A stretch of DNA of 64,000 bases, taken from the NCBI GenBank assembly GCA_965231055.1, contig OZ246411.1:732500-796499 (forward strand), given 5' to 3'. The notes below the pieces were generated by a model. The model was given only the letters and a program-made list of their open reading frames with translations, searched no databases and was not told the DNA's origin. The DNA comes from an uncultured Candidatus Saccharibacteria bacterium. Lineage in GTDB: Bacteria; Patescibacteriota; CALEFQ01; G965231055. Shown here in pieces: positions 10,053 to 55,697 of this stretch. How positions within the stretch are numbered: the stretch's first letter is position 1; each line of letters starts with the position of its first letter. The position numbers and the translations under genes were made by a program.

Positions 10053-11330
10053 TTAGATAACACTTTTAAATACACTCTTATTTCCCAAAATTCTTTCTAT
10101 TTCCATAAGTCTATTGTATTTTGCTAGTCTCTCTCCTCTGGCAAGTGATCCTGTCTTGATTTGCATAGCATTTGTCGCCACGGCAAGGTCTGCAATAAAG
10201 GCATCATTGGTTTCCCCTGAACGATGAGATATCACTACTCCATAATTATTGAGTTTGGCTAATTTTATAGCGTCAAAAGTTTCCGTGAGAGTTCCTATTT
10301 GATTTACTTTTATAAGTACTGCATTTGCAATATTCTTATCTATAGCTATTTGTATCCTCTTCACATTTGTAACCAAAAGATCATCTCCTATCAGCTGAAC
10401 TTTTTTACTCATTTTCTCAGTGAGCTTTTTCCATGCATCCCAATCATCTTCTGCAAAACCATCTTCAATAATAGCTACATGAAATTTGTCATGCCATTTT
10501 TCATACATCTCTATAATTTCTTCAACACTAAGTTTTTTATTTAATGTTGTAGATTTATACCCTTCGCTTTTTTCAAAAAATGAAGAAGCAGCTACGTCCA
10601 TTCCTATTTTAATATCCTTACCAAGTCTATAACCAGCTTTTTCAATTGCACTACTTATGAACTCCAACGGCTCATCAAGATTACTCACCTTTGGCGCAAA
10701 TCCTCCCTCATCTCCAACTCCAGTAGCTAATCCCTTTTCATTGAGCACTTTTTTTAGACTATGATAAACCTCTGATCCCATCCTAACTGCGGTAGCAAAA
10801 TCACTAGCCCCAACAGGAAGAATCATATATTCCTGAACATCCAAATTATTATCAGCGTGCTTGCCTCCATTTAAAATATTGAACATAGGAAGTGGCATAT
10901 AGTAAGCCCCATTGCTTCCAAAAATCACTCTAAGATATTCAAACAGCTCAACTCCCAGATGATTTGCATAAGCTCTAGCACACGCCAAAGAAACGCTCAA
11001 AATCGCATTGGCACCCAGTCGCTTTTTATTCTCAGTGCCATCAAGCGAATTCATTTTATAATCTATCGCTGACTGCTCCCTAGCATCCATACCTACAATA
11101 TGCGGAGCTATTTCTTCCTCAACATTTTTTATTGCATTGAGCACTCCTTTGCCCATATATCGCTTGCTATCTCCATCGCGTAGTTCTAGGGCCTCATGAA
11201 TTCCAGTGGATGCGCCAGAAGCAACGCTCGCCACACCTCTTACACCATTTTCCAATATCACGGTGGTCTCAATAGTGGGCTCGCCCCTAGAATCCAAAAT
11301 TTCTTTTGAGTGAATTGAACTTATTATCAT
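10053..11330 (-). CDS. eno: enolase
   Basis: SRGEPTIE N-terminus; 425 aa; canonical enolase motifs. Confidence 0.95.
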   Translation of the reverse strand: MIISSIHSKEILDSRGEPTIETTVILENGVRGVASVASGASTGIHEALELRDGDSKRYMGKGVLNAIKNVEEEIAPHIVGMDAREQSAIDYKMNSLDGTENKKRLGANAILSVSLACARAYANHLGVELFEYLRVIFGSNGAYYMPLPMFNILNGGKHADNNLDVQEYMILPVGASDFATAVRMGSEVYHSLKKVLNEKGLATGVGDEGGFAPKVSNLDEPLEFISSAIEKAGYRLGKDIKIGMDVAASSFFEKSEGYKSTTLNKKLSVEEIIEMYEKWHDKFHVAIIEDGFAEDDWDAWKKLTEKMSKKVQLIGDDLLVTNVKRIQIAIDKNIANAVLIKVNQIGTLTETFDAIKLAKLNNYGVVISHRSGETNDAFIADLAVATNAMQIKTGSLARGERLAKYNRLMEIERILGNKSVFKSVI

Positions 11331-11338
11331 ATTTTTAT

Positions 11339-12502
11339 TTATTTTTTTAAAGCCTCTATCGCAACGAGCTTGCCTTTTTCAAGATATTTAAGCATAGCTC
11401 CTCCGCCAGTAGATACATACTCTACATCTTCTATTAGCTTTATTTCTTCTAACGCGTCTATAGTTTCTCCGCCTCCCACTATAGATTCTCCTGAGGCATG
11501 AGCTATCACTCGAGCCACTTCAAATGTACCTTGGCTAAAATCTTTTTCTTCAAATTTACCCATGGGACCATTCCAAACCACCATACCAGCTTTATTTATT
11601 ATATGAGAAAAAACTCCGATGGTTCTTTGGCCTATGTCAAAAACCTTGTCATCTCTTGTGATTTGCATCACATCTTTTTCCAAAACATTTCCCAAAACAT
11701 CTTTTACTTTTACATCTATTGGGATATGTAAGTTATTATCAGATAATTTGGAAATAAGAATCTTGGCTTCGTTTAAAAAATCTGGCTCTATTTGATCACT
11801 TGAAATTTTTACGCCAGTAGCTGCAAGTAAGGTATTGGCAAGCTTTCCTCCCACCAAAACATTGTCAGCATTATTGATCATGTATTTGAGTAATCCCAGT
11901 TTGGTCTTGAGCTTCGCTCCACCTGTCACAAAAACAAATGGTGTTTTTGGATTGTTCCTCACCTGATCCATTTTTTTTATCTCTTCTTCTAGCTGAAAAC
12001 CGGCAAATGAAGGAAGAAATTTCACCACACCCATCATGGAAGCGTGATCCCTGTGGCAATTTGAAAAAGCTTCATTTACATATATTTCTCCAAGTTCAGA
12101 CAAAGATTTGGCAAAATTCAAATCATTTTCTTCTTCCTCTTTATGAAATCTGAGATTTTCCAAAAGTATAATTCTTTCCACCGAAGAATGTATGATCTTT
12201 TTATATTCTTTGGATATCGAGTCATCTAGCTTGAGAACTTTTTCAGACAAAAGCTTTTCAAGTTTTTTTGCAAAATAACCCCCCAATCTCAAATTATTAA
12301 CCACTTTTCCCTCGGGACTTCCCAAATGAGTCATGAGCACTGCCTTGCCACCCCTATCCAGAATATATTTGATGGTTTTTAGACTAGCGCGTATTCTAAA
12401 ATCACTCTGGGGCTCTCCCTTTTCATCTATGGGTTCATTAAAATCCACTCTTACAAGAGCGATTTTGTTTCTCAAATCTATGTCAGATAATGATTTTATC
12501 AT
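11339..12502 (-). CDS. pgk: phosphoglycerate kinase
   Basis: LVRVDFNEP N-terminal motif; GGGA..LE C-terminal motif; 387 aa. Confidence 0.95.
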   Translation of the reverse strand: MIKSLSDIDLRNKIALVRVDFNEPIDEKGEPQSDFRIRASLKTIKYILDRGGKAVLMTHLGSPEGKVVNNLRLGGYFAKKLEKLLSEKVLKLDDSISKEYKKIIHSSVERIILLENLRFHKEEEENDLNFAKSLSELGEIYVNEAFSNCHRDHASMMGVVKFLPSFAGFQLEEEIKKMDQVRNNPKTPFVFVTGGAKLKTKLGLLKYMINNADNVLVGGKLANTLLAATGVKISSDQIEPDFLNEAKILISKLSDNNLHIPIDVKVKDVLGNVLEKDVMQITRDDKVFDIGQRTIGVFSHIINKAGMVVWNGPMGKFEEKDFSQGTFEVARVIAHASGESIVGGGETIDALEEIKLIEDVEYVSTGGGAMLKYLEKGKLVAIEALKK

Positions 12503-12503
12503 T

Positions 12504-13136
12504 CTAATTTACTCGTTTTTTTAATAAAAAGGATTTTATCTTGCTATCCAGTCTTGCACTAGAGACTCCCCCGTGAAAAACAAATGTATCCATGCCAAAC
12601 TTTTTCGCAGTACCTATATTTTCAGGAGTATCATCTACGAAAAAGCATTGTCCGCCCTTTACTTTCAATTTCCTCATCACGTACTCAAAAATTTGAGGAG
12701 TTGGCTTTCTAAGTCCTATGTCAGCAGAGTTGAAAATATACTTAAACTTCTTGAAAATTTTGTATTTGCGCTTCCACATCTTCATCCATTCCTTATTGTG
12801 ATTGGTAAGCAAAATCAAATCAACTTTTCCGTAAAGTGAATCAATAATATCCCACACCTCGTGAATGGGAATAAAACCGCAAAGAAGCCATTTCTCAAAC
12901 TCTTCACCCCCAACTCCCAGCGAAACTTCTTTGTAAAAGTTAGTAAAAAATCTTTTGGGACTTATTTTACCTATCTCCAAATCTGCAAGCCCACCTTTTC
13001 TCTTGGTATCTCTGAATTTTTTCTCTATCTCATCAGTATCTTCTCCGGTTTCCCGTTTGAGTTTATGAAAAACCTGCTTGGTTCCATCTTCAAGCACCAC
13101 TCCACCAAGATCAAAGATTATATATTTTTTATTCAT
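12504..13136 (-). CDS. HAD-superfamily hydrolase (phosphatase/beta-phosphoglucomutase-like)
   Basis: FDLGGVV motif I at N-terminus and DD motif near C-terminus. Confidence 0.6.
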   Translation of the reverse strand: MNKKYIIFDLGGVVLEDGTKQVFHKLKRETGEDTDEIEKKFRDTKRKGGLADLEIGKISPKRFFTNFYKEVSLGVGGEEFEKWLLCGFIPIHEVWDIIDSLYGKVDLILLTNHNKEWMKMWKRKYKIFKKFKYIFNSADIGLRKPTPQIFEYVMRKLKVKGGQCFFVDDTPENIGTAKKFGMDTFVFHGGVSSARLDSKIKSFLLKKRVN

Positions 13137-44849: not shown

Positions 44850-45683
44850 TTATTTGATCAAGATATCTCCTATCTCATCAGTTCGCAAAATCTCTGCGCC
44901 AAAGTTTCCAATACGCTCAAGAACCTCTTTAGCAGGATGCCCATAGCGATTTTCCTCCCCCGCGCTCACCACAACTTTTTCTGGATTCACCGCCTTGATC
45001 CAAGAGTCACTATTTGAATATTTGGATCCGTGATGATTGGCATGCATGATTTTTGCAGACACATCAAGGCCTTTTTCTATGATTTTGTTTTCTGTTTCAG
45101 AGTCAATGTCACCAGACAAAAGTAGAATAGGAGCATTATTGAAATAAACTTTCATCGCAACAGATAAATTGTTTAGATCATCTTCTTTGCTTGCAAATTC
45201 ATCTTCAAAAAAAGGATGCAAAACCAAAAAACTAATACTATTATATTCAAAAGCATCTCCCAAATTTGCCCACTCTATTTCTACATCACTAGATTCCAAA
45301 AGAGCATCAAAAATTTGAGATTCCTCGTTTTTGGCACTATTTTTGCTCATTATCACTTTTTCAACTTCATATTTTTCGAGCACGTCTATTAATCCATTTA
45401 TATGATCAGCGTCTCCGTGAGTTAAAACAACTACCTCCATTGTCTTGTCCCAAAAGGGCATGTATTTTCCTATTTTTGAAAGCACTGCACTATTTGGTCC
45501 TCCATCAACCAGTATCTGAAATTCACCTTCTTGTATTAGCGTTGCGTCTCCCTGCCCCACATCAAAAAAGATTATTTCCGGCGCATCATTTTGCTCGTGC
45601 CTAGAAATTAGAACAAAAAAAGATAACGCGACTACTAGCACAAGCACCGTGGTCAAAATAATTTTGAATTTCGAAATTTCCAT
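44850..45683 (-). CDS. comEC: ComEC/Rec2 C-terminal metallo-beta-lactamase domain protein (own N-terminal TM anchor)
   Basis: HGDADHINGL MBL motif. Confidence 0.7.
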   Translation of the reverse strand: MEISKFKIILTTVLVLVVALSFFVLISRHEQNDAPEIIFFDVGQGDATLIQEGEFQILVDGGPNSAVLSKIGKYMPFWDKTMEVVVLTHGDADHINGLIDVLEKYEVEKVIMSKNSAKNEESQIFDALLESSDVEIEWANLGDAFEYNSISFLVLHPFFEDEFASKEDDLNNLSVAMKVYFNNAPILLLSGDIDSETENKIIEKGLDVSAKIMHANHHGSKYSNSDSWIKAVNPEKVVVSAGEENRYGHPAKEVLERIGNFGAEILRTDEIGDILIK

Positions 45684-47161
45684 TTTTTATTAAACTTTAC
45701 AAAAACTATTATACCGCAGATTAATACTAACCACACAATCAATTGCCAAAATTTCATCTCACCAAAATTCCAAGAACAATATTTTATCTTAGCAAGCCAA
45801 TGCATAATAAATAGCTCAAATCTCACACCAATATCAATGCCCACACCAAGAATCCTTCCAATAAAACTATTAAGAGAAGAAACAAAACCCAAAATAAATC
45901 CAGCAATCATAAAAAAAGGCATAAGTAGCTCCAAAATAAATGTACCCACAAAAGAAACCGCGGAAAAATATCCAAAATAGTAAATAGTGATTGGCAAAGT
46001 CACAATACTTGCAGACATTGTGGCTGAGATCGATTCTCTAAATTCCAAAAACGACGGCAAGAATTTCAGAAAATTTTTAAACAAAGAGGAAAGATAAACT
46101 ATCCCAATAGTAGCAAGAAATGAGAGCTGAAAACCTATGTCTTTAAATAATACTTGGGGATTTAGACCCACCATCAATGCCATCGTAAGTGCCAAAAAAA
46201 TCTCAAAATTTCTTCTTCTACCCAGCATTTGCGCACAAAGCACGATAATTCCCGTAATAGAGGCTCTGGTTACTGACGGAGAAATTCCAGCGAGAAATAT
46301 ATAGATAAAAAGAAATATCACGACAAAAATACATGCGATAGTTCTATTTATAAATCTAAGTGAGCTTAGTATTATTGCAGAGATTATAGAAATATTGATC
46401 CCAGAAATCGCAACCAGATGCAATGTGCCCGTGGATCTAAACTCCTCTATTATATCTTTATCGATATTTGAATACCCTCCAAACAAAACCATTTTAATAA
46501 ATCCTGAAGCAGGCAAATGCATAGATATATCAATTGCCTCACCAAACTTATTTTTCACACCAAAAATAAAATGCAGAAATCCACTCCCTCTTTTCTCCAG
46601 TTTCATATAGGGGCTATACGAAACTGAATAAATTTCTTTGGTGGCTAAATAACCAACGAAGTCAAAATCCTCAGCAAAATTTTGCGGAGAATTGATTTTA
46701 CCTGAAATCAATACTCTATCCTTGTATTCAAACTCTTGGTATCGAGAAGTGTAAACCAAAAGTTTTCCGCTAAACGCTATTTTTTCTTTCGTATCTTTCA
46801 GATCCAAAAAACAATTTTGCATTATTAGCTCTGTGTTTTTTTGTTTAACAAGCGGCTCCAAAGAAATTTCGCAAGAAATACTGAAAGAATCTTTGTCATT
46901 GAGCATGCTTATTGGCACATGCTTTTCATAAAATATAGGAACTATTACCCTAAAAAATGCACATGCAAAAACACAAATAAATATACCGATTATTTTTAGC
47001 TTTGTGTTTCCCAAGAAAACAAAAACAACCGAAACAAAAAAAGCTCCCATAAGAGCCAAAAGAATTCTAAAATCAGATAGATTTTCGGAGAAATAATCAA
47101 ACAATCCGCACGCAAAAGCGAATACCAAAAGACATATCAAAAAAACTATATGCTTCTTCAT
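45653..47161 (-). CDS. comEC: ComEC/Rec2 N-terminal polytopic membrane (competence channel) part
   Basis: 502 aa multi-TM; overlaps the MBL-domain ORF by 31 nt in a different frame. Confidence 0.65.
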   Translation of the reverse strand: MKKHIVFLICLLVFAFACGLFDYFSENLSDFRILLALMGAFFVSVVFVFLGNTKLKIIGIFICVFACAFFRVIVPIFYEKHVPISMLNDKDSFSISCEISLEPLVKQKNTELIMQNCFLDLKDTKEKIAFSGKLLVYTSRYQEFEYKDRVLISGKINSPQNFAEDFDFVGYLATKEIYSVSYSPYMKLEKRGSGFLHFIFGVKNKFGEAIDISMHLPASGFIKMVLFGGYSNIDKDIIEEFRSTGTLHLVAISGINISIISAIILSSLRFINRTIACIFVVIFLFIYIFLAGISPSVTRASITGIIVLCAQMLGRRRNFEIFLALTMALMVGLNPQVLFKDIGFQLSFLATIGIVYLSSLFKNFLKFLPSFLEFRESISATMSASIVTLPITIYYFGYFSAVSFVGTFILELLMPFFMIAGFILGFVSSLNSFIGRILGVGIDIGVRFELFIMHWLAKIKYCSWNFGEMKFWQLIVWLVLICGIIVFVKFNKKWKFRNSKLF

Positions 47162-47508: not shown

Positions 47509-48042
47509 CTAGTATTCTATTCCTTTTCTTGCTGAAATTCCATCTTCATATGGATGTCTGATGCTATCTACTCTTGATATCAGTTTGGCTTTTTGCATTA
47601 TCTTGGGTGAAGCATCTCTTCCTGTAAGCACCAGCTCCATCTTGTGCGGACGTAAATTCAATAAGCTTTCTATGTCATCTTCATGAAGTAGATTAAACTT
47701 GATCGTATCCAAAAGCTCATCAAGAATCAAAACATCATAATAAGCTTTTTCCAAAATTTCCTTTGCTCTTTGTATGCCCATTTCCGCATAATGAATATCA
47801 TTTAGCGTAGGACCTTTTGGTCCTATGAAGTCTCCTGAGCCATATTGTTCCAAAAGAAATTTATAATCAGGATACACTTCTGCCAATGGTTTAGTTTCAC
47901 CAAATTCCCCGTTTTTCATAAACTGAAGAATAGCCACATTTAGCCCTTGACCCAGTGCTCTTAGCGCTTGACCAAAAGCAGCGGTAGTTTTACCTTTGCC
48001 ATTTCCTATATATATTTGTATTATTCCGCCTTTTGTTTTCAT
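47509..48042 (-). CDS. cobA: ATP:cob(I)alamin adenosyltransferase (CobA/BtuR/CobO type)
   Basis: GNGKGKTTAAFG P-loop; 177 aa from internal Met MKTKGGII. Confidence 0.7.
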   Translation of the reverse strand: MKTKGGIIQIYIGNGKGKTTAAFGQALRALGQGLNVAILQFMKNGEFGETKPLAEVYPDYKFLLEQYGSGDFIGPKGPTLNDIHYAEMGIQRAKEILEKAYYDVLILDELLDTIKFNLLHEDDIESLLNLRPHKMELVLTGRDASPKIMQKAKLISRVDSIRHPYEDGISARKGIEY

Positions 48043-48149
48043 TTTTTTGTCTTGGCTTGAATTAGTATGATACCAAATTTTTTGCAAAAAAAATAGTGTC
48101 TACCGATAAATCGATAGACACCAATGAACAATAGCTGAAACTTGAGATC

Positions 48150-48596
48150 TTATAAGACGAAACTTTTCAATTCCTCCCTGAAACGAGGACACTCGTCGAG
48201 AATCTCACTGAAACTACTCATCAAGAAGGAGTTTCCTTCCTTCTTATAAAAGATCCTGAGATTGCCTTCGCAGGAGATCACGTAGTAGCTGAATTCTCCC
48301 TCGGTGAGATCCTTGGGCTTCAGGAGACGAAAACTGCTCGCGTAGAAAATTTTGGGCTCTTCTTTCTTATGATCCGATAAGTACTCCGCGAAAGAGAAGG
48401 ATTCAATTTGATCAATCTCCTGCCCGTGAATTCTCAGTATGCCTCCAAAGTCCCGGTGTTTGAAATATCGCTTACCTTCTTTTGTTTCGAGGTAGTCCAT
48501 ATTCGAGCACCTGTTCTCATCGGTACTTTTCAGAAAACGAATCAGAGCCGTAACCCAATGGGCCATCTCAACTCCATTACAAACTTTATGAGTCAT
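48150..48596 (-). CDS. hypothetical protein (148 aa) with atypical, higher-GC composition
   Basis: Codon usage visibly richer in GAG/CTC/CGC than neighbours; no recognisable motif. Confidence 0.45.
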   Translation of the reverse strand: MTHKVCNGVEMAHWVTALIRFLKSTDENRCSNMDYLETKEGKRYFKHRDFGGILRIHGQEIDQIESFSFAEYLSDHKKEEPKIFYASSFRLLKPKDLTEGEFSYYVISCEGNLRIFYKKEGNSFLMSSFSEILDECPRFREELKSFVL

Positions 48597-48794: not shown

Positions 48795-48831
48795 GTGGAT
48801 AGATTTTTTATCCACACTTAGAGTATCCACA
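48795..48831. promoter_or_regulatory. cluster of three DnaA-box-like 9-mers (TGTGGATAg, TTATCCACA, gTATCCACA) around the nrdJ stop codon
   Basis: gtgtggata-gatttttta-tccacac inverted repeat plus a third copy inside the last codons. Confidence 0.35.
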
Positions 48832-51800
48832 GCTTCGGCAGATAAGGCATCCTTCGGAAAATTCAACAGTGCCTCCGCATTCTGGACACATAGGATTGTA
48901 TCCCAATTCATTGTTTGTGGTGTAAACTTTTTCTTTCTTTTTTTCTTCAACCACAGTTGGCTTCTCTACTTTTTCAACCTTTGGCATAACTAAATCTAGC
49001 TTGAGTTTGACGCTAGGCTTTTCTTCCTTCTTGAATTCCAGTTTTAGTTTACTTTTTCTTTCTATATATCTCTTGAGTGCTAAAGCTATACCATCAGAGC
49101 AAGAAAAAATCGTTCCGCCTTTTGTCATGATGGGAGAAGGGCATCTCACTCCTTCAAGCTGTTTTACTATTTCATTTGGATCTATTCCTGATCTTAGCGC
49201 TATAGAAATCAGTCTTCCTATTGATTCTGAATATGACGCGGGGCATCCTCCTGATTTTCCAAGCTTCGCGAAAACTTCAAACACACTATTCTCATCCTCA
49301 TTTATAGTTACATGCAAAGGACCACATCCAGTCGTGATGACTTCGGTGGTACCCATGACAACTTCTGGTCTCTCTCTTGGTTCAACTGAACCTATGGAAC
49401 CGATGGTTACTTTTGATTTGTCAGCAGATAAACCACTTCCTCTCACAAGCACCTGTTCATCTTTTGATTTGTCTCTATAAATAGTAATTCCCTTGCATCC
49501 GGTACTGTATGCTAGCATGTAGGCTTTTTTCACTTGGTCCACTGTCGCATCCTCTTTGAAATTTACAGTTTTGGAAACAGCGTTGTCAGTATATTTTTGA
49601 AATGAGGCCTGCATTTTTACATGCCACTCTGGATCGATATCATGAGCAGTCACGAAAATTCTTTTTACTTTTTCGGGAACTTCATCGAGATGCTGAACTC
49701 CCCCCTCTGCCTTTACTTTTTCTATTAATTCTTCTGAATAAAAGCCTTCTTCCTTTGCAATTCTTTCAAACTCAGGATGCATCACGACTTGATTTTCTCC
49801 CCCCATTGAATTTTGCATCGTATAGCTTATGGCAAACAACGGCTCTATCCCAGCTGAACAATCTGCGACTATGCTTATAGATCCCGTTGGAGCAATAGTA
49901 GTCACAGTAGCATTTCGCATCGCATCATATTTGCCATTGAAAGTGCTTTCTTTAAACGCTGGAAAGGATCCTCTTTCTTGTCCTAATTTTTGGGATTCGC
50001 TTCTTGCTACCTTGTTTACAAAACCCATAACAACCTCGGCCATATCCGTAGCTTCTTTGCTGTTATAAGGAATTCCAAGTTTAATAAGCATATCAGCCCA
50101 GCCCATTATTCCTAGTCCAGATTTTCTCGTTCTCTTGGTGGCTGATTCTATTTCGGGAAGCACATATTCATTTGATGAAGTTATGTCATCAAGAAATCTC
50201 ACACCTGTTCTCACTACATCCTCTAATCTTCTCCAATCAATTTTGCCATCTTTAACAAACCTGGAAAGATTGACGCTACCAAGATTACACGACTCATAAG
50301 GAAACAATGGCTGTTCTCCGCATGGATTGGTGGCGGTCATCTTACCTAGCCCCGGCACGGTATTACCTTTTTGAATAGTATCAAGAAAAACAACACCAGG
50401 ATCTCCCGAACCCCAAGCGTGTCTAGAAATAAGATCAAATAAATTAGTTGCGCTTACTTCTTTTACACATGCTTTTGTCCTAGGATCTATGAGTTTAAAA
50501 CTCTTATCATCCCTCACGGCTTCCATAAATTCATTTGTAATGCCCACAGAAAGATTGAGATTTTCAACTTCACCAGGAACATCTTTGCATTTTATAAATG
50601 TTTCAATATCAGGATGATCTATATTTAGTATAGCCATTGCGCCCATTTTTCTACCACCTCTGCCTTTTATAGTTCTCATTGTGGCATTTAACGCTCTTAG
50701 AAATTCAACTGGACCAGCTGCGTTTTCTCCAGTGGAACTTACTTTTGAATAGCTAGATCTTATATCTGAGAGATTGAATCCTGTACCACCTCCACTTCGG
50801 AGTATCTGAATATTGTCTCTTACTGTGTTGAATATATCGTTTATGCTGTCATGCATAGGTAGCACAAAACACTTGGACAAGGTTCTGTTTCGTTGTCCTG
50901 CAAAAATCAAAGTGCCCCCACAAAGAAATTCTAAATTCTTTTGAACTTCTGAAAATTTGTTTTTTATTTTTTTGCACTCTTCGTCGGAGCAAAATTCTTT
51001 TTCAGATCGTCCTACGAAATCAGATATTCTATCAAACAATTCTTCGGGAGTTTCTATTACTTCGCCTTTCTCATTTTTGGCAAGAGCTCGCTTTTCCAAA
51101 ACCTTTATCGCATTTGGAGTAAGCTTTGCTTTTTCTTCTTTTGCACCTTGCTCTTCAGGCTGTTTAATTTCAGATGGTTTCTTCTCTTCTTTTTTAACTC
51201 CCATTATCTGAAATTCTTTGCATCCATCTCTATAAATAGTAATACCCTTACATCCAAGCTCATAGGAAAGCATGAAAGCATCTTTGACTTGGTCTATCGT
51301 GGCGTCATTTGGGAAATTTATAGTTTTAGAAACGGCATTGTCTGTATATTTCTGCGCGTTGGCTTGAATTTTTAGATGCCATTCGTATGAAACGTCATGA
51401 GAAGTTACAAAAACTTTTCTCACTGCCTCAGGTATTTCTTCTAAATCCTTTATACTCCCACGAGAAGCTATTTTCTTCATAAGCTCTTCCGAGTAAAAAC
51501 CTTTTTCTTTGGCAACTTCTTCAAAAACAGGATCAGTGATAACTATTTCTTGGTAACTATCACCCTTGAACAATGCTTTTCTTACAGAAACGAGTGAGAA
51601 CACCGGCTCTATACCAGAAGAACATCCGGCGATAAGACTTATGGATCCAGTTGGCGCAATCGTTGTAAGAGTTGCATTTCTTGGTCTGAAACCCGTATCA
51701 ACAAAAATACTCTCTTCAAAAGCTGGAAAAACTCCACGCTCTTTTGCTAGTTCGCAGGAGCGTTTCATCCCTTCTTCTTTTATGAATTTCATAATCTCAC

Positions 51801-52929
51801 CAGATAGTTTTATAGCCTCATCGCTATTATAAGGAATACCTAGCTTATAAAGCATATGAGAAAATCCCATAATTCCAAGGCCTATCTTTCTCGTTCGCTT
51901 TACATTTTCATCTATTTTTTGAAGCGGGAATTTGTTTTCTTCTATAACATTATCCATAAAATGCACTGCGTCTCTCACAGTATTTCTAAGCATATTCCAA
52001 TCCATCACTCCATCTCTGAAATGATTGGTCAAAACTATTGATCCCAAGTTACATGACTCATAAGGAAGCAATGGCTGCTCTCCGCATGGGTTGGTAGCGT
52101 CTATTTTGCCAAGTTTAGGAGTCGGGTTTGATCTTTGTATTCTATCTAGATAAATAGCTCCTGGATCAGCACACTCCCAAGCTTTTTTCGCTATCAAGTC
52201 AAAAACTTCTCTAGCTTTTATTTTTCTAACAACTTCGTTGTTGTGAGGATTTTTCAGATCGTATTCTTTGTTGTTTTTTACCTTCTCCATGAAATCATCA
52301 GTAATTCCCACAGAAATATTGAAATTTTTTATACTTGATCCGCTGTCTTTTAGTTTGATGAAATCCAAAATATCTGGATGATCCACATTCAAAATTCCCA
52401 TATTACCTCCGTGTCTTTTGCTGCCTTGCAAAATTTGAGATAAAGCCGTATCAAAAGTTTTTAGGTAATGAATGGGACCCGCTGCCACATTTGGAATTCC
52501 CCTAACCGAACTTCCTCTTGGTCTTATCGGTGAAAAATTGAATCCAGTTCCTCCGTTATTTTTTTGTATGACCGCTGCATCTGACAATGCCTGAAAAATA
52601 TCTGTGAGCGAATCAGATAGAGGCACCACAAAACAAGCAGAATATTGTCCATTGTGATTGGTTCCTGCTTCAAGTAGCACGGGGCTATTTGGCAAAAATC
52701 TGAGTTGCGCCATCATCTTATAAAACCTGCGGGCATTCTCATCCACAGCTACGGCATCTTTACCGAATTTTTTATCTGCTTCAGAGATACACTTTGCTAC
52801 TCTCCATAACATTTCATCTGGGGTCTCTAAAATATTACCTTTTTCATCAGTTACTAAATAGCGCTTCTTGATAATTTCAAGAGCTGCTTTTGAAAATTTT
52901 GGTTGTGGTAAATCTTTTGGAACTGTCAT
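48808..52929 (-). CDS. nrdJ: tandem fusion of two class II (adenosylcobalamin-dependent) ribonucleotide reductase NrdJ modules; C-terminal Zn ribbon
   Basis: 1373 aa, uninterrupted; module 1 (51201..52929) and module 2 (48808..51120) each have the Cys-containing S(A/K)CFV, NPCGEQPL, ESCNLGS, PTGSIS and KTVNF motifs; joined by a K/E-rich linker (51121..51200); C-terminus CPECGG..CLICRSCG. Confidence 0.8.
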   Translation of the reverse strand: MTVPKDLPQPKFSKAALEIIKKRYLVTDEKGNILETPDEMLWRVAKCISEADKKFGKDAVAVDENARRFYKMMAQLRFLPNSPVLLEAGTNHNGQYSACFVVPLSDSLTDIFQALSDAAVIQKNNGGTGFNFSPIRPRGSSVRGIPNVAAGPIHYLKTFDTALSQILQGSKRHGGNMGILNVDHPDILDFIKLKDSGSSIKNFNISVGITDDFMEKVKNNKEYDLKNPHNNEVVRKIKAREVFDLIAKKAWECADPGAIYLDRIQRSNPTPKLGKIDATNPCGEQPLLPYESCNLGSIVLTNHFRDGVMDWNMLRNTVRDAVHFMDNVIEENKFPLQKIDENVKRTRKIGLGIMGFSHMLYKLGIPYNSDEAIKLSGEIMKFIKEEGMKRSCELAKERGVFPAFEESIFVDTGFRPRNATLTTIAPTGSISLIAGCSSGIEPVFSLVSVRKALFKGDSYQEIVITDPVFEEVAKEKGFYSEELMKKIASRGSIKDLEEIPEAVRKVFVTSHDVSYEWHLKIQANAQKYTDNAVSKTINFPNDATIDQVKDAFMLSYELGCKGITIYRDGCKEFQIMGVKKEEKKPSEIKQPEEQGAKEEKAKLTPNAIKVLEKRALAKNEKGEVIETPEELFDRISDFVGRSEKEFCSDEECKKIKNKFSEVQKNLEFLCGGTLIFAGQRNRTLSKCFVLPMHDSINDIFNTVRDNIQILRSGGGTGFNLSDIRSSYSKVSSTGENAAGPVEFLRALNATMRTIKGRGGRKMGAMAILNIDHPDIETFIKCKDVPGEVENLNLSVGITNEFMEAVRDDKSFKLIDPRTKACVKEVSATNLFDLISRHAWGSGDPGVVFLDTIQKGNTVPGLGKMTATNPCGEQPLFPYESCNLGSVNLSRFVKDGKIDWRRLEDVVRTGVRFLDDITSSNEYVLPEIESATKRTRKSGLGIMGWADMLIKLGIPYNSKEATDMAEVVMGFVNKVARSESQKLGQERGSFPAFKESTFNGKYDAMRNATVTTIAPTGSISIVADCSAGIEPLFAISYTMQNSMGGENQVVMHPEFERIAKEEGFYSEELIEKVKAEGGVQHLDEVPEKVKRIFVTAHDIDPEWHVKMQASFQKYTDNAVSKTVNFKEDATVDQVKKAYMLAYSTGCKGITIYRDKSKDEQVLVRGSGLSADKSKVTIGSIGSVEPRERPEVVMGTTEVITTGCGPLHVTINEDENSVFEVFAKLGKSGGCPASYSESIGRLISIALRSGIDPNEIVKQLEGVRCPSPIMTKGGTIFSCSDGIALALKRYIERKSKLKLEFKKEEKPSVKLKLDLVMPKVEKVEKPTVVEEKKKEKVYTTNNELGYNPMCPECGGTVEFSEGCLICRSCGYSKCG

Positions 52930-52959
52930 GGAGATATATTAGTTTTAAAAAATAAAATA

Positions 52960-55155
52960 TTATATTTTTAGCTTTCCGCTATCATCAAGATATTTTTGAA
53001 TTGCTCTAGAAATAGCATCTGCACATGAAAGCACCGCACCGTCTTTTGTAAGCAATGGCTTTGAGCATCTGATTCCTCTAAGTTCTTTGAGCAAATCCTT
53101 TGGATCCATTCCACCCCTCAATGCAGTTGAAACCAATCTACTAATTGCTTCTACCTGAGATCCTTCGCATCCTCCGCTTTTACCCATTCTTGCGATAACT
53201 TCTACCATTCCTTTTTCATCTTCACTTATAGTCACGAAAAGTCTTCCACATCCGCTCATCATTTTGTATGTTTTGCCGGTCACTACCTCTGGGCGCTTTC
53301 TGGGTCTCATTGGTTGCTCTATAACTTTGACAGCTATTTTTCCAGATTGAATAGATTGAGAGTCTCCAGATTCTTTTGAGCCACCCTCGCTACCAATATT
53401 TAAGACCTGCTTATCTCTTGATTTATCTCTATATACAGTGACACCCTTGCATTTAAGTTTATAAGCGAGATCGAAAACCCTTCTCACATCCAGAGTAGTT
53501 GCGTCATGTGGCATATTAACTGTCTTGGAAACAGCATTGTCTATATTGTCTTGAAAAGCTGCTTGCATTTTTACATGCCAATCAGGAGAAATATCATGAG
53601 AAGTAACAAAAATTCTCTTAACCTCTTCGGGAATTTCACCAAAATCTTTGATGCTTCCCTTCTTTGCAATTTTTTCAAATAAAAATTCATCATAAAATCC
53701 TTTTTCCTTTGCTACCTGACTAAAAAGTGGGTGCGTTTCTGTCATAGAAAAATCACCCAAATCCAAAATATTTTTTCGGGTAAACGAGATAGCGAAAATA
53801 GGCTCAATACCGGACGAACATCCAGCAATTATGCTTATAGTTCCGGATGGAGCTATTGTAGTGACAGTTGCGTTTCGCATGGCTGGAAATCCTTGCTCTG
53901 ACCAAATACTTTTTTCCATATTTGGGAAAGAACCTCTTTCTTCTCCTATTTTTTCAGACATTCGTCTTCCCTCTTCTGATATAAATTTCATCACTCTCTG
54001 CGCAGTAGCTATTCCTTCTTCGCTGTTATATGGAATACCAAGGGCCATAAGCATATCTGCAAATCCCATCACGCCTAGACCAATTTTCCTGTTCGCCTTG
54101 GTTGCTGTATCTATTTTGGTTATGGGAAAATTATTTACATCTATAACATTGTCAAGAAAACGCACAGCGGATCTAACCACGCGACCAAGCTTTTTAAAAT
54201 CAATTGAAACCTTACCTTTGTCATCCATAATCATTCGCGAAAGATTTATGGAACCCAAGTTACATGATTCATAGGGCAACAATGGTTGCTCTCCGCAAAC
54301 ATTGGTTGATTCTATTTTGCCAACACCTGGAGTAGTATTTTTATTGTTAATTTCGTCTATAAATACTATTCCGGGTTCTGCGTTTTTCCACGCCATCTCC
54401 ACAATAAGTCCATAAACATCATTGGCTCTCAGAGTCTTTACGGCATTTTTGGTATGGGGATCAATAAGCTCATATTCCCTATCGTTTTTCACGGCTTCCA
54501 TAAACTTTTCCGTAACTGCTACTGACACATTGAAATTATTAAGTTCTCTTGGATCGTCTTTGACAGTAATAAAATCCAAAATATCAGGATGATCCACTCT
54601 CAAAATTCCCATGATGGCACCTCTTCTAGCGCTTGCCTCATTTATTGTGTTTGTTGAGTTATTAAAAAGTTTCATGAAAGAGATAGGACCAGTTGATCCT
54701 TTTTTTGTAGTTGAGATTATAGATCCTTTGGGACGTAGCTTTGAAAAATCAGATCCGCTTCCGCCACCAGATTTGTGCACCAAAGCAGTTTCGCGCATTG
54801 CTTCAAAAATAGATTCCATAGAATCATCTACGGGTATCACATAGCATCCTGAAAGCTGACCCATCTTGCTTCCTGCATTCATCAAGGTTGGAGAGTTTGG
54901 TAAAAAGTCCAAAGAAGCCATAAGATCATAGAACTCTTGCTTGGTGTTTTTGACTTCTTGTTCCGATGCTCCATATCTGGCATCTGCTTGCGCCACAAAA
55001 GAAGCCACCCTATCAAACATTTCTTCAGCCGTTTCCGTAACCTCTCCACTAGAATTTCTTTGTAAAATTCTTTTTTTCAATACTTCCTCTGCATTTTTTG
55101 ATAGTGTCAATTTCATTTTTTTATTTACTGCGAATCTTTTAAAGGTTATTCGCAA
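52960..55155 (-). CDS. nrdJ: class II (adenosylcobalamin-dependent) ribonucleotide reductase NrdJ, stand-alone
   Basis: 731 aa; LSGCYVIPV, NVCGEQPLLPYESCNLGS, APSGTISI; C-terminal TGCG..GKSGGC subdomain present. Confidence 0.85.
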   Translation of the reverse strand: MRITFKRFAVNKKMKLTLSKNAEEVLKKRILQRNSSGEVTETAEEMFDRVASFVAQADARYGASEQEVKNTKQEFYDLMASLDFLPNSPTLMNAGSKMGQLSGCYVIPVDDSMESIFEAMRETALVHKSGGGSGSDFSKLRPKGSIISTTKKGSTGPISFMKLFNNSTNTINEASARRGAIMGILRVDHPDILDFITVKDDPRELNNFNVSVAVTEKFMEAVKNDREYELIDPHTKNAVKTLRANDVYGLIVEMAWKNAEPGIVFIDEINNKNTTPGVGKIESTNVCGEQPLLPYESCNLGSINLSRMIMDDKGKVSIDFKKLGRVVRSAVRFLDNVIDVNNFPITKIDTATKANRKIGLGVMGFADMLMALGIPYNSEEGIATAQRVMKFISEEGRRMSEKIGEERGSFPNMEKSIWSEQGFPAMRNATVTTIAPSGTISIIAGCSSGIEPIFAISFTRKNILDLGDFSMTETHPLFSQVAKEKGFYDEFLFEKIAKKGSIKDFGEIPEEVKRIFVTSHDISPDWHVKMQAAFQDNIDNAVSKTVNMPHDATTLDVRRVFDLAYKLKCKGVTVYRDKSRDKQVLNIGSEGGSKESGDSQSIQSGKIAVKVIEQPMRPRKRPEVVTGKTYKMMSGCGRLFVTISEDEKGMVEVIARMGKSGGCEGSQVEAISRLVSTALRGGMDPKDLLKELRGIRCSKPLLTKDGAVLSCADAISRAIQKYLDDSGKLKI

Positions 55156-55170
55156 AATATTAATTTATAA

Positions 55171-55614
55171 TTAAAGTTCTAAAATAGTTTTTTGAAAATC
55201 TTCGGGGGAAGAAAAACGATCAAAAACAGATTTAAATCTTATGAAAGCAATTAGATCGAATTTCTGAAGATGCTTAAGCACAATCGATCCGATGTCTTTG
55301 CTATAAATCTCGCCTTCGGAAAAAGCCAATATTTCCTGCTCTATTCCATCAATCAATGAATTGATTTCTTCCTCGCTTCTTCCTCGCTTTGCGCATGCAT
55401 AATTTATAGCTTTGTATAATTTTTCACGATTATACATTTCTTTTTTACCGTTTCGTTTTCGCACCTCAAGTTTTTTCAATTCTATTCGCTCAACCGTCGT
55501 GTATCTTCTTTTGCAGCTCTCACACTCACGCCTTCTTCTAATAGAAATTCCATCCTCTGATATTCGAGAATCTACCACCCTAGTCTCTTTGTATCCGCAT
55601 ATTGGACAATTCAA
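55171..55614 (-). CDS. nrdR: transcriptional repressor NrdR (Zn ribbon + ATP cone)
   Basis: MNCPICGYKETRVVDSR...CESCKRRYTT. Confidence 0.9.
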   Translation of the reverse strand: MNCPICGYKETRVVDSRISEDGISIRRRRECESCKRRYTTVERIELKKLEVRKRNGKKEMYNREKLYKAINYACAKRGRSEEEINSLIDGIEQEILAFSEGEIYSKDIGSIVLKHLQKFDLIAFIRFKSVFDRFSSPEDFQKTILEL

Positions 55615-55649: not shown

Positions 55650-55697
55650 CCACAATGTATTGTATTGCAGGGATAATCTTACCACAATATCTAGTGC
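55650..55697. promoter_or_regulatory. two tandem NrdR-box-like palindromes, centres 32 bp apart, upstream of nrdR
   Basis: ccacaatgtattgtat and ccacaatatctagtgc compared with the NrdR-box consensus acaCwAtATaTwGtgt. Confidence 0.55.

Follow-up and report, generated by a model that had tools for sequence, protein, structure and literature searches.

Background

The alpha subunits of ribonucleotide reductases (RNRs) are classically homodimers. In canonical RNRs the specificity sites are made at the dimer interface, across which each communicates with the active site. Since both halves are the same, asymmetry, half-site reactivity and communication across the subunits are hard to dissect. Heterodimers of class I paralogs occur in yeast as Rnr1-Rnr3 (alpha-alpha') and Rnr2-Rnr4 (beta-beta'), which are made of separate chains, and Rnr4 is catalytically inert. 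Here we investigate a class II RNR (NrdJ) system in a stretch of 64,000 nucleotides, referred to as the window, from the genome of an uncultured Candidatus Saccharibacteria bacterium (GenBank assembly GCA_965231055.1, contig OZ246411.1, positions 732,500 to 796,499). In it, one gene encodes two fused NrdJ catalytic modules, M1 and M2, next to a gene for a third, standalone NrdJ, which we call S. Unlike the yeast heterodimers, the fused NrdJ has all catalytic residues in both modules, and has them in one chain.

The dimeric NrdJ of T. maritima (PDB 1XJE, 3O0O) is a homodimer of identical chains. The fusion shares with it the catalytic Cys/Asn/Glu set, the equivalents of D141, R171 and R207, and the C-terminal cysteine-rich domain (CRD) of the full-length enzyme. 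In the fusion, however, modules that are 47% identical stand in one chain, C-terminal domains are found on the second of them only, and the two have different loops 2 and different apical loops.

In NrdJd of S. nassauensis the CRD (C920, 923, 933, 936, 939, 945) binds zinc, delivers electrons to the active site, also between subunits, and drives the formation of tetramers and hexamers (Loderer et al. 2017, PMC5704485). The spacing of the six Cys is nearly the same in the fusion (x2, x9, x2, x2), followed by x4 where S. nassauensis has x5. Each catalytic subunit of S. nassauensis NrdJd has a tail, whereas the fusion system has one per three modules, on a longer tether. In the split NrdJa and NrdJb of P. 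aeruginosa a CRD-less barrel relies on a CRD from elsewhere, and M1 and the standalone NrdJs of its relatives are barrel-only like NrdJa. Here, however, the CRD is on a second full catalytic module, through fusion, the opposite of fission, and a separate nrdJb (TSCPD/zinc-finger) gene was not found in the operon, the CRD being fused to M2. The L. leichmannii NrdJm (RTPR) likewise has a partner surface for the specificity site within the same polypeptide, but this is a small insertion mimicking the partner, in an enzyme with a single active site, whereas the fusion has a second complete, apparently active barrel.

Several NrdJs in one genome have been described before. Genomes with two NrdJs of differing predicted phosphate specificity (PMC8365446) share with this locus paralogs that have different apical-loop motifs. 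In Frankia and Alphaproteobacteria with two NrdJd (PMC5704485) only one of them carries the CRD, as here. These cases are separate genes, and no covalent fusion or three-module operon is reported in either paper. The comprehensive RNR family analyses PMC9531940 and PMC9669993 mention neither tandem or fused catalytic domains nor Patescibacteria. The first-pass annotation of this DNA knew of no described fused double NrdJ, and we likewise found no description of a tandem or fused NrdJ, or of a Patescibacterial RNR, in the literature searched, which leaves out most subscription journals, so that an earlier description is possible. The fused proteins are already in NCBI and UniRef under generic names ('vitamin B12-dependent ribonucleotide reductase', 'NrdZ'). 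What appears to be new is that two diverged catalytic modules are paired covalently, together with a conserved third paralog and a shared tail; the chemistry and the domains were already known. Are both of the fused modules enzymes? And do they pair with each other, or with the modules of other chains?

One gene with two reductase modules

In the 1373 aa encoded by the fused open reading frame (ORF), Pfam finds the all-alpha N domain of RNRs (Ribonuc_red_lgN) and the 10-stranded barrel (Ribonuc_red_lgC) twice each and a TSCPD domain once, at aa 1197-1288; S has one each of lgN, lgC and TSCPD. The fused ORF had been annotated as a single uninterrupted double NrdJ with a 27-aa linker at 51121..51200. 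The translation indeed runs through without a stop, and the linker has the length and the start given, its end being at 51201 (aa 577-603). The modules had been put at about 40–50% identity to each other, and the values are 47% (M1-M2), 49.6% (M1-S) and 49.1% (M2-S).

The NrdJ equivalogs NF006417 and TIGR02504 (NCBIfam) match the fusion twice each, above their cut-offs, with scores of 1810.7 (cut-off 961) and 1301 (cut-off 400); S scores 1050.6 and 686.6 with the same models. Class I RNR models (e.g. NF006578, TIGR04170) are below their cut-offs, the monomeric RTPR model TIGR02505 reaches 123.7 against a cut-off of 340, and no NrdB, NrdG or glycyl-radical domain was found in a Pfam scan of the NrdJ ORFs. 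The best match of each fused module in the PDB is the dimeric NrdJ of T. maritima, both by sequence (E 1.8e-121) and by structure (Foldseek, TM 0.82–0.84), the latter search working per chain, which confirms the module fold and is silent on the inter-module interface. By these sequence matches the three modules are classed as dimer-type class II, adenosylcobalamin (AdoCbl)-dependent RNRs, NrdJd-like and not NrdJm. The use of AdoCbl has indirect support from the absence of NrdB, NrdG and glycyl-radical domains, from the adjacent corrinoid adenosyltransferase gene here and from DUF4430 in a relative.

The usual cause of NrdJ ORFs longer than 1000 aa is an intein that interrupts a single NrdJ. 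This was considered and rejected, as Pfam found no intein families in the fusion, which is without Hint, intein-splicing or LAGLIDADG domains.

Distribution and age of the fusion

The identical 1373-aa protein is present on four contigs in NCBI and Logan assemblies, the longest being 843,892 bp. In a search of 5.8 billion clusters, 116 clusters (90% identity) share the two-module chain, with lengths of 1155–1668 aa and identities of 45–70%. They come from NCBI, JGI, ENA and Logan, and all that are named belong to the Patescibacteria or candidate phyla radiation (CPR): Patescibacteria group, Dojkabacteria/WS6, Kerfeldbacteria, Parcubacteria and Andersenbacteria. Ninety-nine of the fusions were aligned, and the conservation, linker and loop counts given here rest on these. 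Their linkers are unconserved and 18–78 aa long; 15 are only 18–19 aa. Misassembly or a collapsed stop was ruled out by the four contigs with the identical protein and the 116 homolog clusters.

Among the top 150 matches of a HMMER scan of 1.84 billion representatives, true double modules came only from the fusion family (P0241, P0110); clustering at 50% reduces the family to these two representatives, so that the scan is a poor measure of its diversity. Six other long NrdJ matches, of many, were checked and all are intein-containing single NrdJs. A contig scan with patterns reduced to the universal NPCGE motifs returned 80 loci, all with ordinary single NrdJs, from many phyla. No unfused M1- or M2-type gene was found among 11 short representatives checked, all of which are ordinary NrdJs by best BLAST match, with PNSP in the nine that have a readable apical loop.

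In a neighbour-joining tree of 558 columns the M1 modules form one group, the M2 modules a second and short standalone NrdJs (S-short) a third, and the S of the window and its relative P0122 are placed beside ordinary NrdJs. The M2 modules of P0108 and P0114 are outside the M2 group, with their M1 modules remaining within the M1 group. This may be a module replacement, or the long-branch behaviour of a rough tree. The mean M1-M2 identity across the family is 44%, and each module is 48–49% identical to ordinary NrdJs. Given this grouping and the 44% mean identity, the triplication and the fusion are dated, on sequence comparison, to before the split of the sampled lineages. A recent duplication was ruled out, the modules being only 44–50% identical and in separate tree groups. 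The description of the locus as an old, maintained arrangement is therefore upheld, with the exception in the tree of the P0108 and P0114 M2 modules, and with the synteny described below.

In at least 10 relatives M1 and M2 are separated by a domain of some 200 aa, a Ham1/ITPase (non-canonical NTP pyrophosphatase), which brings the length of the protein to about 1600 aa: P0100 (L008 6001-10821), P0088, P0092, P0102, P0103, P0109, P0110, P0112, P0113 and P0115. Those that are named are from Dojkabacteria or the Patescibacteria group. An M1-Ham1-M2 chain would couple deoxynucleotide (dNTP) synthesis with pool sanitation in one polypeptide.

Active-site and specificity residues

Residues were mapped by motif anchoring to C134/N320/C322/E324/C333 of T. 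maritima NrdJ. The catalytic set is C99/N280/C282/E284/C293 in M1 and C687/N868/C870/E872/C881 in M2, and all ten residues are invariant in the 99 aligned fusions. Of the effector-site residues, the equivalents of T. maritima D141 (D106 and D694), R171 (R136 and R724) and loop-2 R207 (R172 and R760) are invariant in both modules. Each module keeps the APTG phosphate loop, and of 566 core columns 188 in M1 and 167 in M2 reach a conservation of 90% or more. Neither of the fused modules has the look of a pseudo-domain, and both are predicted from sequence to be catalytically competent. The specificity site needs a partner module, and therefore the retained specificity residues count in favour of M1-M2 pairing.

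The first-pass annotation had seen no dead copy among the three modules, and the mapping agrees with it: no catalytic residue is lost in either fused module and the set is present in S. Its statement that all three have the motif NPCGEQPL is correct for the fused modules; S has NVCGEQPL, with its catalytic N, C and E intact.

Divergence of the substrate-choice loops

A column was counted as diverged if it is at least 90% conserved in a reference set of ordinary NrdJs and M1 or M2 has another residue fixed there. Such columns are enriched in the region from the apical loop to loop 2 (M1 aa 78-192), which holds 20 of the 40 diverged columns, as against 87 of the 311 conserved ones (hypergeometric P = 0.0013).

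The apical loop is the phosphate-binding loop, and loop grafting has shown that P-N-S-P specifies nucleoside diphosphates (NDP) and P-[A/S/G]-G-R nucleoside triphosphates (NTP) (Schell et al. 2021, PMC8365446). If an organism has more than one NrdJ, these are preferentially of unlike loop types (760 of 1108, PMC8365446). In the window the loop of M1 is P80-N-S-P83 (52681..52692) and S also has PNSP. In M2 it is C670-G-G672 (50914..50922), one residue shorter; the change from FLPNSP to FLCGG in M2, noticed in the first-pass annotation, thus falls in the very loop that sets NDP or NTP preference. The NTP-type P-[A/S/G]-G-R motif is in none of the three modules of the window. In the relatives, M1 has PG[SGA]R or PAGR in 95 of 99 (PGGR/PAGR in 30, PGSR/PGAR in 65 more), and the Ham1-insert variants have mostly PNSP, although one that was checked, P0092, has PGAR. 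The M2 loop is [S/C/A/P]-G-[G/Q] throughout the family and that of S-short is S-G-M, and these match none of the PNSP, PAGR and PQGSP motifs named in PMC8365446.

Loop 2 differs between the groups. Ordinary NrdJs have vKQGGTRRGANM, the M1 family xlQGxKRxGgNM, the M2 family ixxxGGRxxGsM and S-short vnxaatRraGnM, and the S of the window has INEASARRGAIM. With the apical loop, loop 1 and loop 2 all diverged, the M1 and M2 sites therefore probably prefer different substrates or effectors, in respect of the base, of NDP versus NTP, or of both. The apical-loop types already known are joined by two that are uncharacterised, [SC]G[GQ] and SGM.

A single reductive tail

M1 ends straight after the barrel, and of the two fused modules M2 alone continues into an IscU-like domain and a zinc finger with six Cys. 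The distribution agrees with the one first annotated; TSCPD is present once, and the six Cys are at 1348-1372. The system has one zinc-finger tail per three catalytic modules, both in the window and across the family, and the six-Cys terminus is nearly invariant among the fusions. The tether between TSCPD and zinc finger has a median length of 93 aa in fusions (n=70) versus 55 aa in ordinary NrdJs (n=117), and is 72 aa in the window protein.

The TSCPD domain has been described as IscU-like, and its Cys positions as possible Fe-S-type ligands (PMC9669993). M2 keeps four of these Cys in the window (TGCG, GKSGGC, RC, SC), as does S. Most members of the fusion family have lost them (consensus TxQG, GKSGSF), and by this comparison the lineage of the window looks ancestral in retaining them.

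Predicted structure of the fused modules

The catalytic part of the fusion (aa 1-1166) was modelled as a single chain with AlphaFold2 (AF2) and the 99-sequence alignment. The mean predicted local distance difference test score (pLDDT) is 87.8 and the predicted template modelling score (pTM) is 0.78. The pLDDT falls below 50 only at aa 452-459 and in the linker (573-600), and is mostly above 85 in M1. By our own calculation from the definition of pTM, two folded halves without a defined mutual orientation would be expected to give a value of about 0.5, and 0.78 would correspond to inter-module errors of roughly 7 Å. The pTM of 0.78 therefore implies, within the model, a fixed relative placement of M1 and M2.

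How are the modules arranged?

On balance we lean, if only slightly, towards a three-paralog class II RNR in which M1-M2 is a single-chain alpha-alpha' pseudo-heterodimer with specialised active sites and a shared tail, and S is a third partner or a parallel enzyme. M1 and M2, joined by the floppy linker, would fold against each other within one chain, and both nucleotide specificity sites would be formed within that chain, between non-identical modules, at a fixed 1:1 stoichiometry. Both active sites would be competent but non-equivalent. The single long-tethered tail of M2 would re-reduce the active-site disulfides of M2 and of M1, and possibly those of S, itself without a zinc finger. The intrachain pairing, the division of labour and the sharing of the tail are what we infer from the features of the family described above.

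Several points tell against a pseudo-heterodimer of this kind. AF2 is prone to packing homologous domains against each other when they are tethered, the fixed placement of M1 and M2, which in T. maritima NrdJ would correspond to the alphaA/alphaB four-helix interface if it is the canonical one, was judged by pTM, and a monomer prediction cannot speak to M1:M1', M2:M2' or M:S pairing. The physiological reductant of the CRD was left open in PMC5704485. The ordinary reference set used for the loops is narrow, being made of the closest relatives of S, and the sequences are phylogenetically non-independent, which makes the P values for loop divergence and tether length optimistic. Furthermore, M1 and S of the window are both of the NDP type PNSP and no NDP/NTP split is evident here; M2 alone is atypical, and its loop type is uncharacterised.

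It is possible, although we think it unlikely, that the system goes further and is a hetero-oligomeric division-of-labour reductase, with each site in part hard-wired to a subset of substrates, specificity sites formed between modules and the one M2 tail serving all three. If so, RNRs would have a new quaternary logic here, in place of the canonical single active site that is switched between four substrates by allostery. Such a division of labour may have evolved as salvage-dependent bacteria with tiny genomes obtain host nucleotides at mixed levels of phosphorylation. We are about equally doubtful that the modules of one chain are unpaired and that the linker only enforces co-expression, the interfaces being formed between chains (M1:M2' head-to-tail, M1:M1', M2:M2') or with S, in assemblies like tetramers or hexamers. 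CRD-dependent tetramers and hexamers are documented for the NrdJs of S. nassauensis and T. maritima (PMC5704485; PMC9669993), S is always adjacent and tail-less, suggesting a physical association with the fusion, and the fusion tolerates insertions as long as Ham1 between its modules. Set against this are the confident placement of the modules within one chain by AF2 (pTM 0.78), the linkers of only 18–19 aa in 15 of 99 fusions, and the fixed 1:1 stoichiometry that is the simplest benefit of a fusion, none of which is decisive.

The remaining explanations are much less likely than either the pseudo-heterodimer or the inter-chain oligomer. That one module is mainly regulatory or structural and completes the specificity site of the other seems improbable. 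The apical loop of M2 is shortened and is neither PNSP nor PAGR, M1 is without a reductive tail, and dimer mimicry has a precedent in L. leichmannii NrdJm (cited in PMC5704485), with a further parallel in the inactive Rnr4 of the yeast beta-beta' pair. However, over 99 sequences at 45–70% identity each module keeps its APTG phosphate loop, all five of the catalytic residues and approximately 170–190 core columns, which a purely structural partner would be expected to lose. We give a shade less credence still to three redundant or condition-specific isoenzymes (responding, for example, through expression or to the level of B12) that have the same chemistry, with a fusion that has no functional meaning. 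Several NrdJs per genome are common (1108 organisms, PMC8365446). However, all three modules are in one operon headed by nrdR, there is one tail per set, the divergence is targeted to the substrate-choice loops, and the genomes of these lineages look small (the gene is on contigs of approximately 0.5–1.05 Mb) yet keep all three over a deep divergence. Last, the fusion could be an artefact, a collapsed stop, frameshift or misassembly of two adjacent nrdJ genes. We found nothing in favour of this, and it can for practical purposes be set aside because the identical protein is found on four contigs of different assemblies and the same chain in 116 clusters; in addition, the 99 aligned sequences read through linkers that vary, and the Ham1-insert variant follows the same frame logic.

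If the single-chain alpha-alpha' reading is true, it would provide a natural RNR in which the active sites, the specificity sites and the one tail can all be mutated independently of each other, and asymmetry, half-site reactivity and communication across subunits would become open to direct tests. We would also learn how the dNTP supply is organised in bacteria with very small genomes; about 6.3 kb is spent there on three RNR modules, and therefore it can be argued that each is needed. The mixed phosphate specificity known for co-occurring NrdJs (PMC8365446) would be extended to a covalently linked pair.

The standalone NrdJ and conserved gene order

S had been annotated as a complete 731-aa NrdJ at 52960..55155. 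The ORF has this extent, but the likely start is the ATG at 55116, giving 718 aa, and the protein is not complete in that it is without the terminal six-Cys zinc finger, unlike its closest ordinary relatives. The 718-aa form is identical to the database protein P0121. Its nearest relative, P0122, is 61% identical and from the same operon type, and the next are ordinary NrdJs of 750–790 aa from other phyla at 55–59% identity. S has the PNSP apical loop, the NVCGE motif and a 4-Cys IscU-like TSCPD domain (~52987..53271).

A standalone NrdJ immediately precedes the fusion, or lies one or two genes before it, in all 11 loci that have upstream sequence (L001, which is the window, L002, L003, L005, L006, L007, L008, L089, L090, L091 and L092). 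In most lineages it is the barrel-only S-short of 584–618 aa; in the window, L002 and L089 it is about 720 aa, with TSCPD and without the zinc finger. Both S and S-short retain the catalytic residue set. The NrdJ set is likewise preceded by nrdR in L005, L006, L007, L089, L090 and L091, and the fusion is followed by cobO, next to it or a few genes on, in L002, L003, L005, L089 and L092.

Other nucleotide-related genes are found at some of these loci. NUDIX hydrolase genes lie between the standalone nrdJ and the fusion in L006 (5000-5878, WS6 OLB20) and L007 (5219-5686, Kerfeldbacteria), a further link to nucleotide-pool hydrolases. Downstream of cobO in L005 there are genes for DUF4430, DUF6580 and dCTP deaminase (10871-13058), which suggests a larger neighbourhood of B12 uptake and dNTP genes in some lineages.

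The nrdR operon and the surrounding window

The features of the locus are listed in Table 1. The order on the minus strand is nrdR, S, the fusion, a 148-aa ORFan, cobO/btuR, a YggU-family gene and comEC, with a spacer of 30 nt between the ORFs of S and the fusion.

Table 1. Positions in the window of the genes, protein parts and candidate regulatory sites of the NrdJ locus.
Feature	Position	Strand	Description
Two NrdR-box-like palindromes	55650-55665 and 55682-55697	not assigned	upstream of nrdR, 32 bp apart
nrdR	55171..55614	-	147 aa from TTG start; zinc-ribbon and ATP-cone repressor of RNR genes; Pfam PF22811 2.4e-19 (aa 1-42), PF03477 9.1e-15
Standalone NrdJ (S)	52960..55116	-	718 aa; ORF reaches TTG at 55155; catalytic barrel and TSCPD domain
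Fused NrdJ-NrdJ gene (M1-M2)	48808..52929	-	1373 aa, single ORF
Module 1 (M1)	51202..52929	-	aa 1-576; lgN and catalytic barrel only, nothing after barrel
Linker	51121..51201	-	aa 577-603; 27 aa, K/E-rich; GVKKEEKKPSEIKQPEEQGAKEEKAKL
Module 2 (M2), catalytic part	49435..51120	-	aa 604-1165
M2 TSCPD / IscU-like domain	49066..49341	-	aa 1197-1288; PF12637 2.3e-21
Flexible tether, TSCPD to zinc finger	48895..49065	-	aa 1289-1345; K/E-rich; read from translation
C-terminal six-Cys zinc finger (CRD end) of M2	48811..48894	-	C1348-x2-C-x9-C-x2-C-x2-C-x4-C1372
148-aa ORF between fused nrdJ and cobO	48150-48596	-	no Pfam match
ATP:corrinoid adenosyltransferase (CobO/BtuR)	47509..48087	-	makes the AdoCbl cofactor; PF02572 1.7e-53

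The two palindromes are the sole matches in the 64-kb window, at up to 3 mismatches, to ACACWATATATWGTGT, the NrdR-box consensus of NrdR regulons. Because the only two matches in 64 kb are upstream of nrdR, the sequence suggests that the nrdR-nrdJ-nrdJJ operon as a whole is autoregulated by NrdR through the paired palindromes.

The public call of the nrdR gene (135 aa, L001 352-759) starts 12 codons later, at a GTG, and deprives the zinc ribbon of its first CxxC. A start at the TTG of 55614 restores the full N-terminus of NrdR, with the Pfam zinc ribbon at aa 1-42.

The 148-aa ORF has no match in Pfam, shows no similarity to the small ORF that occupies this position in the closest relative, and reaches a pLDDT of 37 in a single-sequence AF2 prediction. 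It may be an unexplained ORFan or no gene at all, and was left out of the RNR system.

No tRNA or Rfam match was found in the 64-kb window. Nearly all of its long ORFs (1-64000) are on the minus strand, the GC skew is negative throughout and the GC content is 35–40%. At approximately 22–36 kb the sizes of the ORFs, by themselves, suggest a cluster of ribosomal protein, EF-Tu and EF-G genes. Downstream of the RNR genes, comEC appears as two adjoining ORFs, one with the Competence/DUF4131 part (45653-47161) and the other with the metallo-beta-lactamase part (44850-45683).

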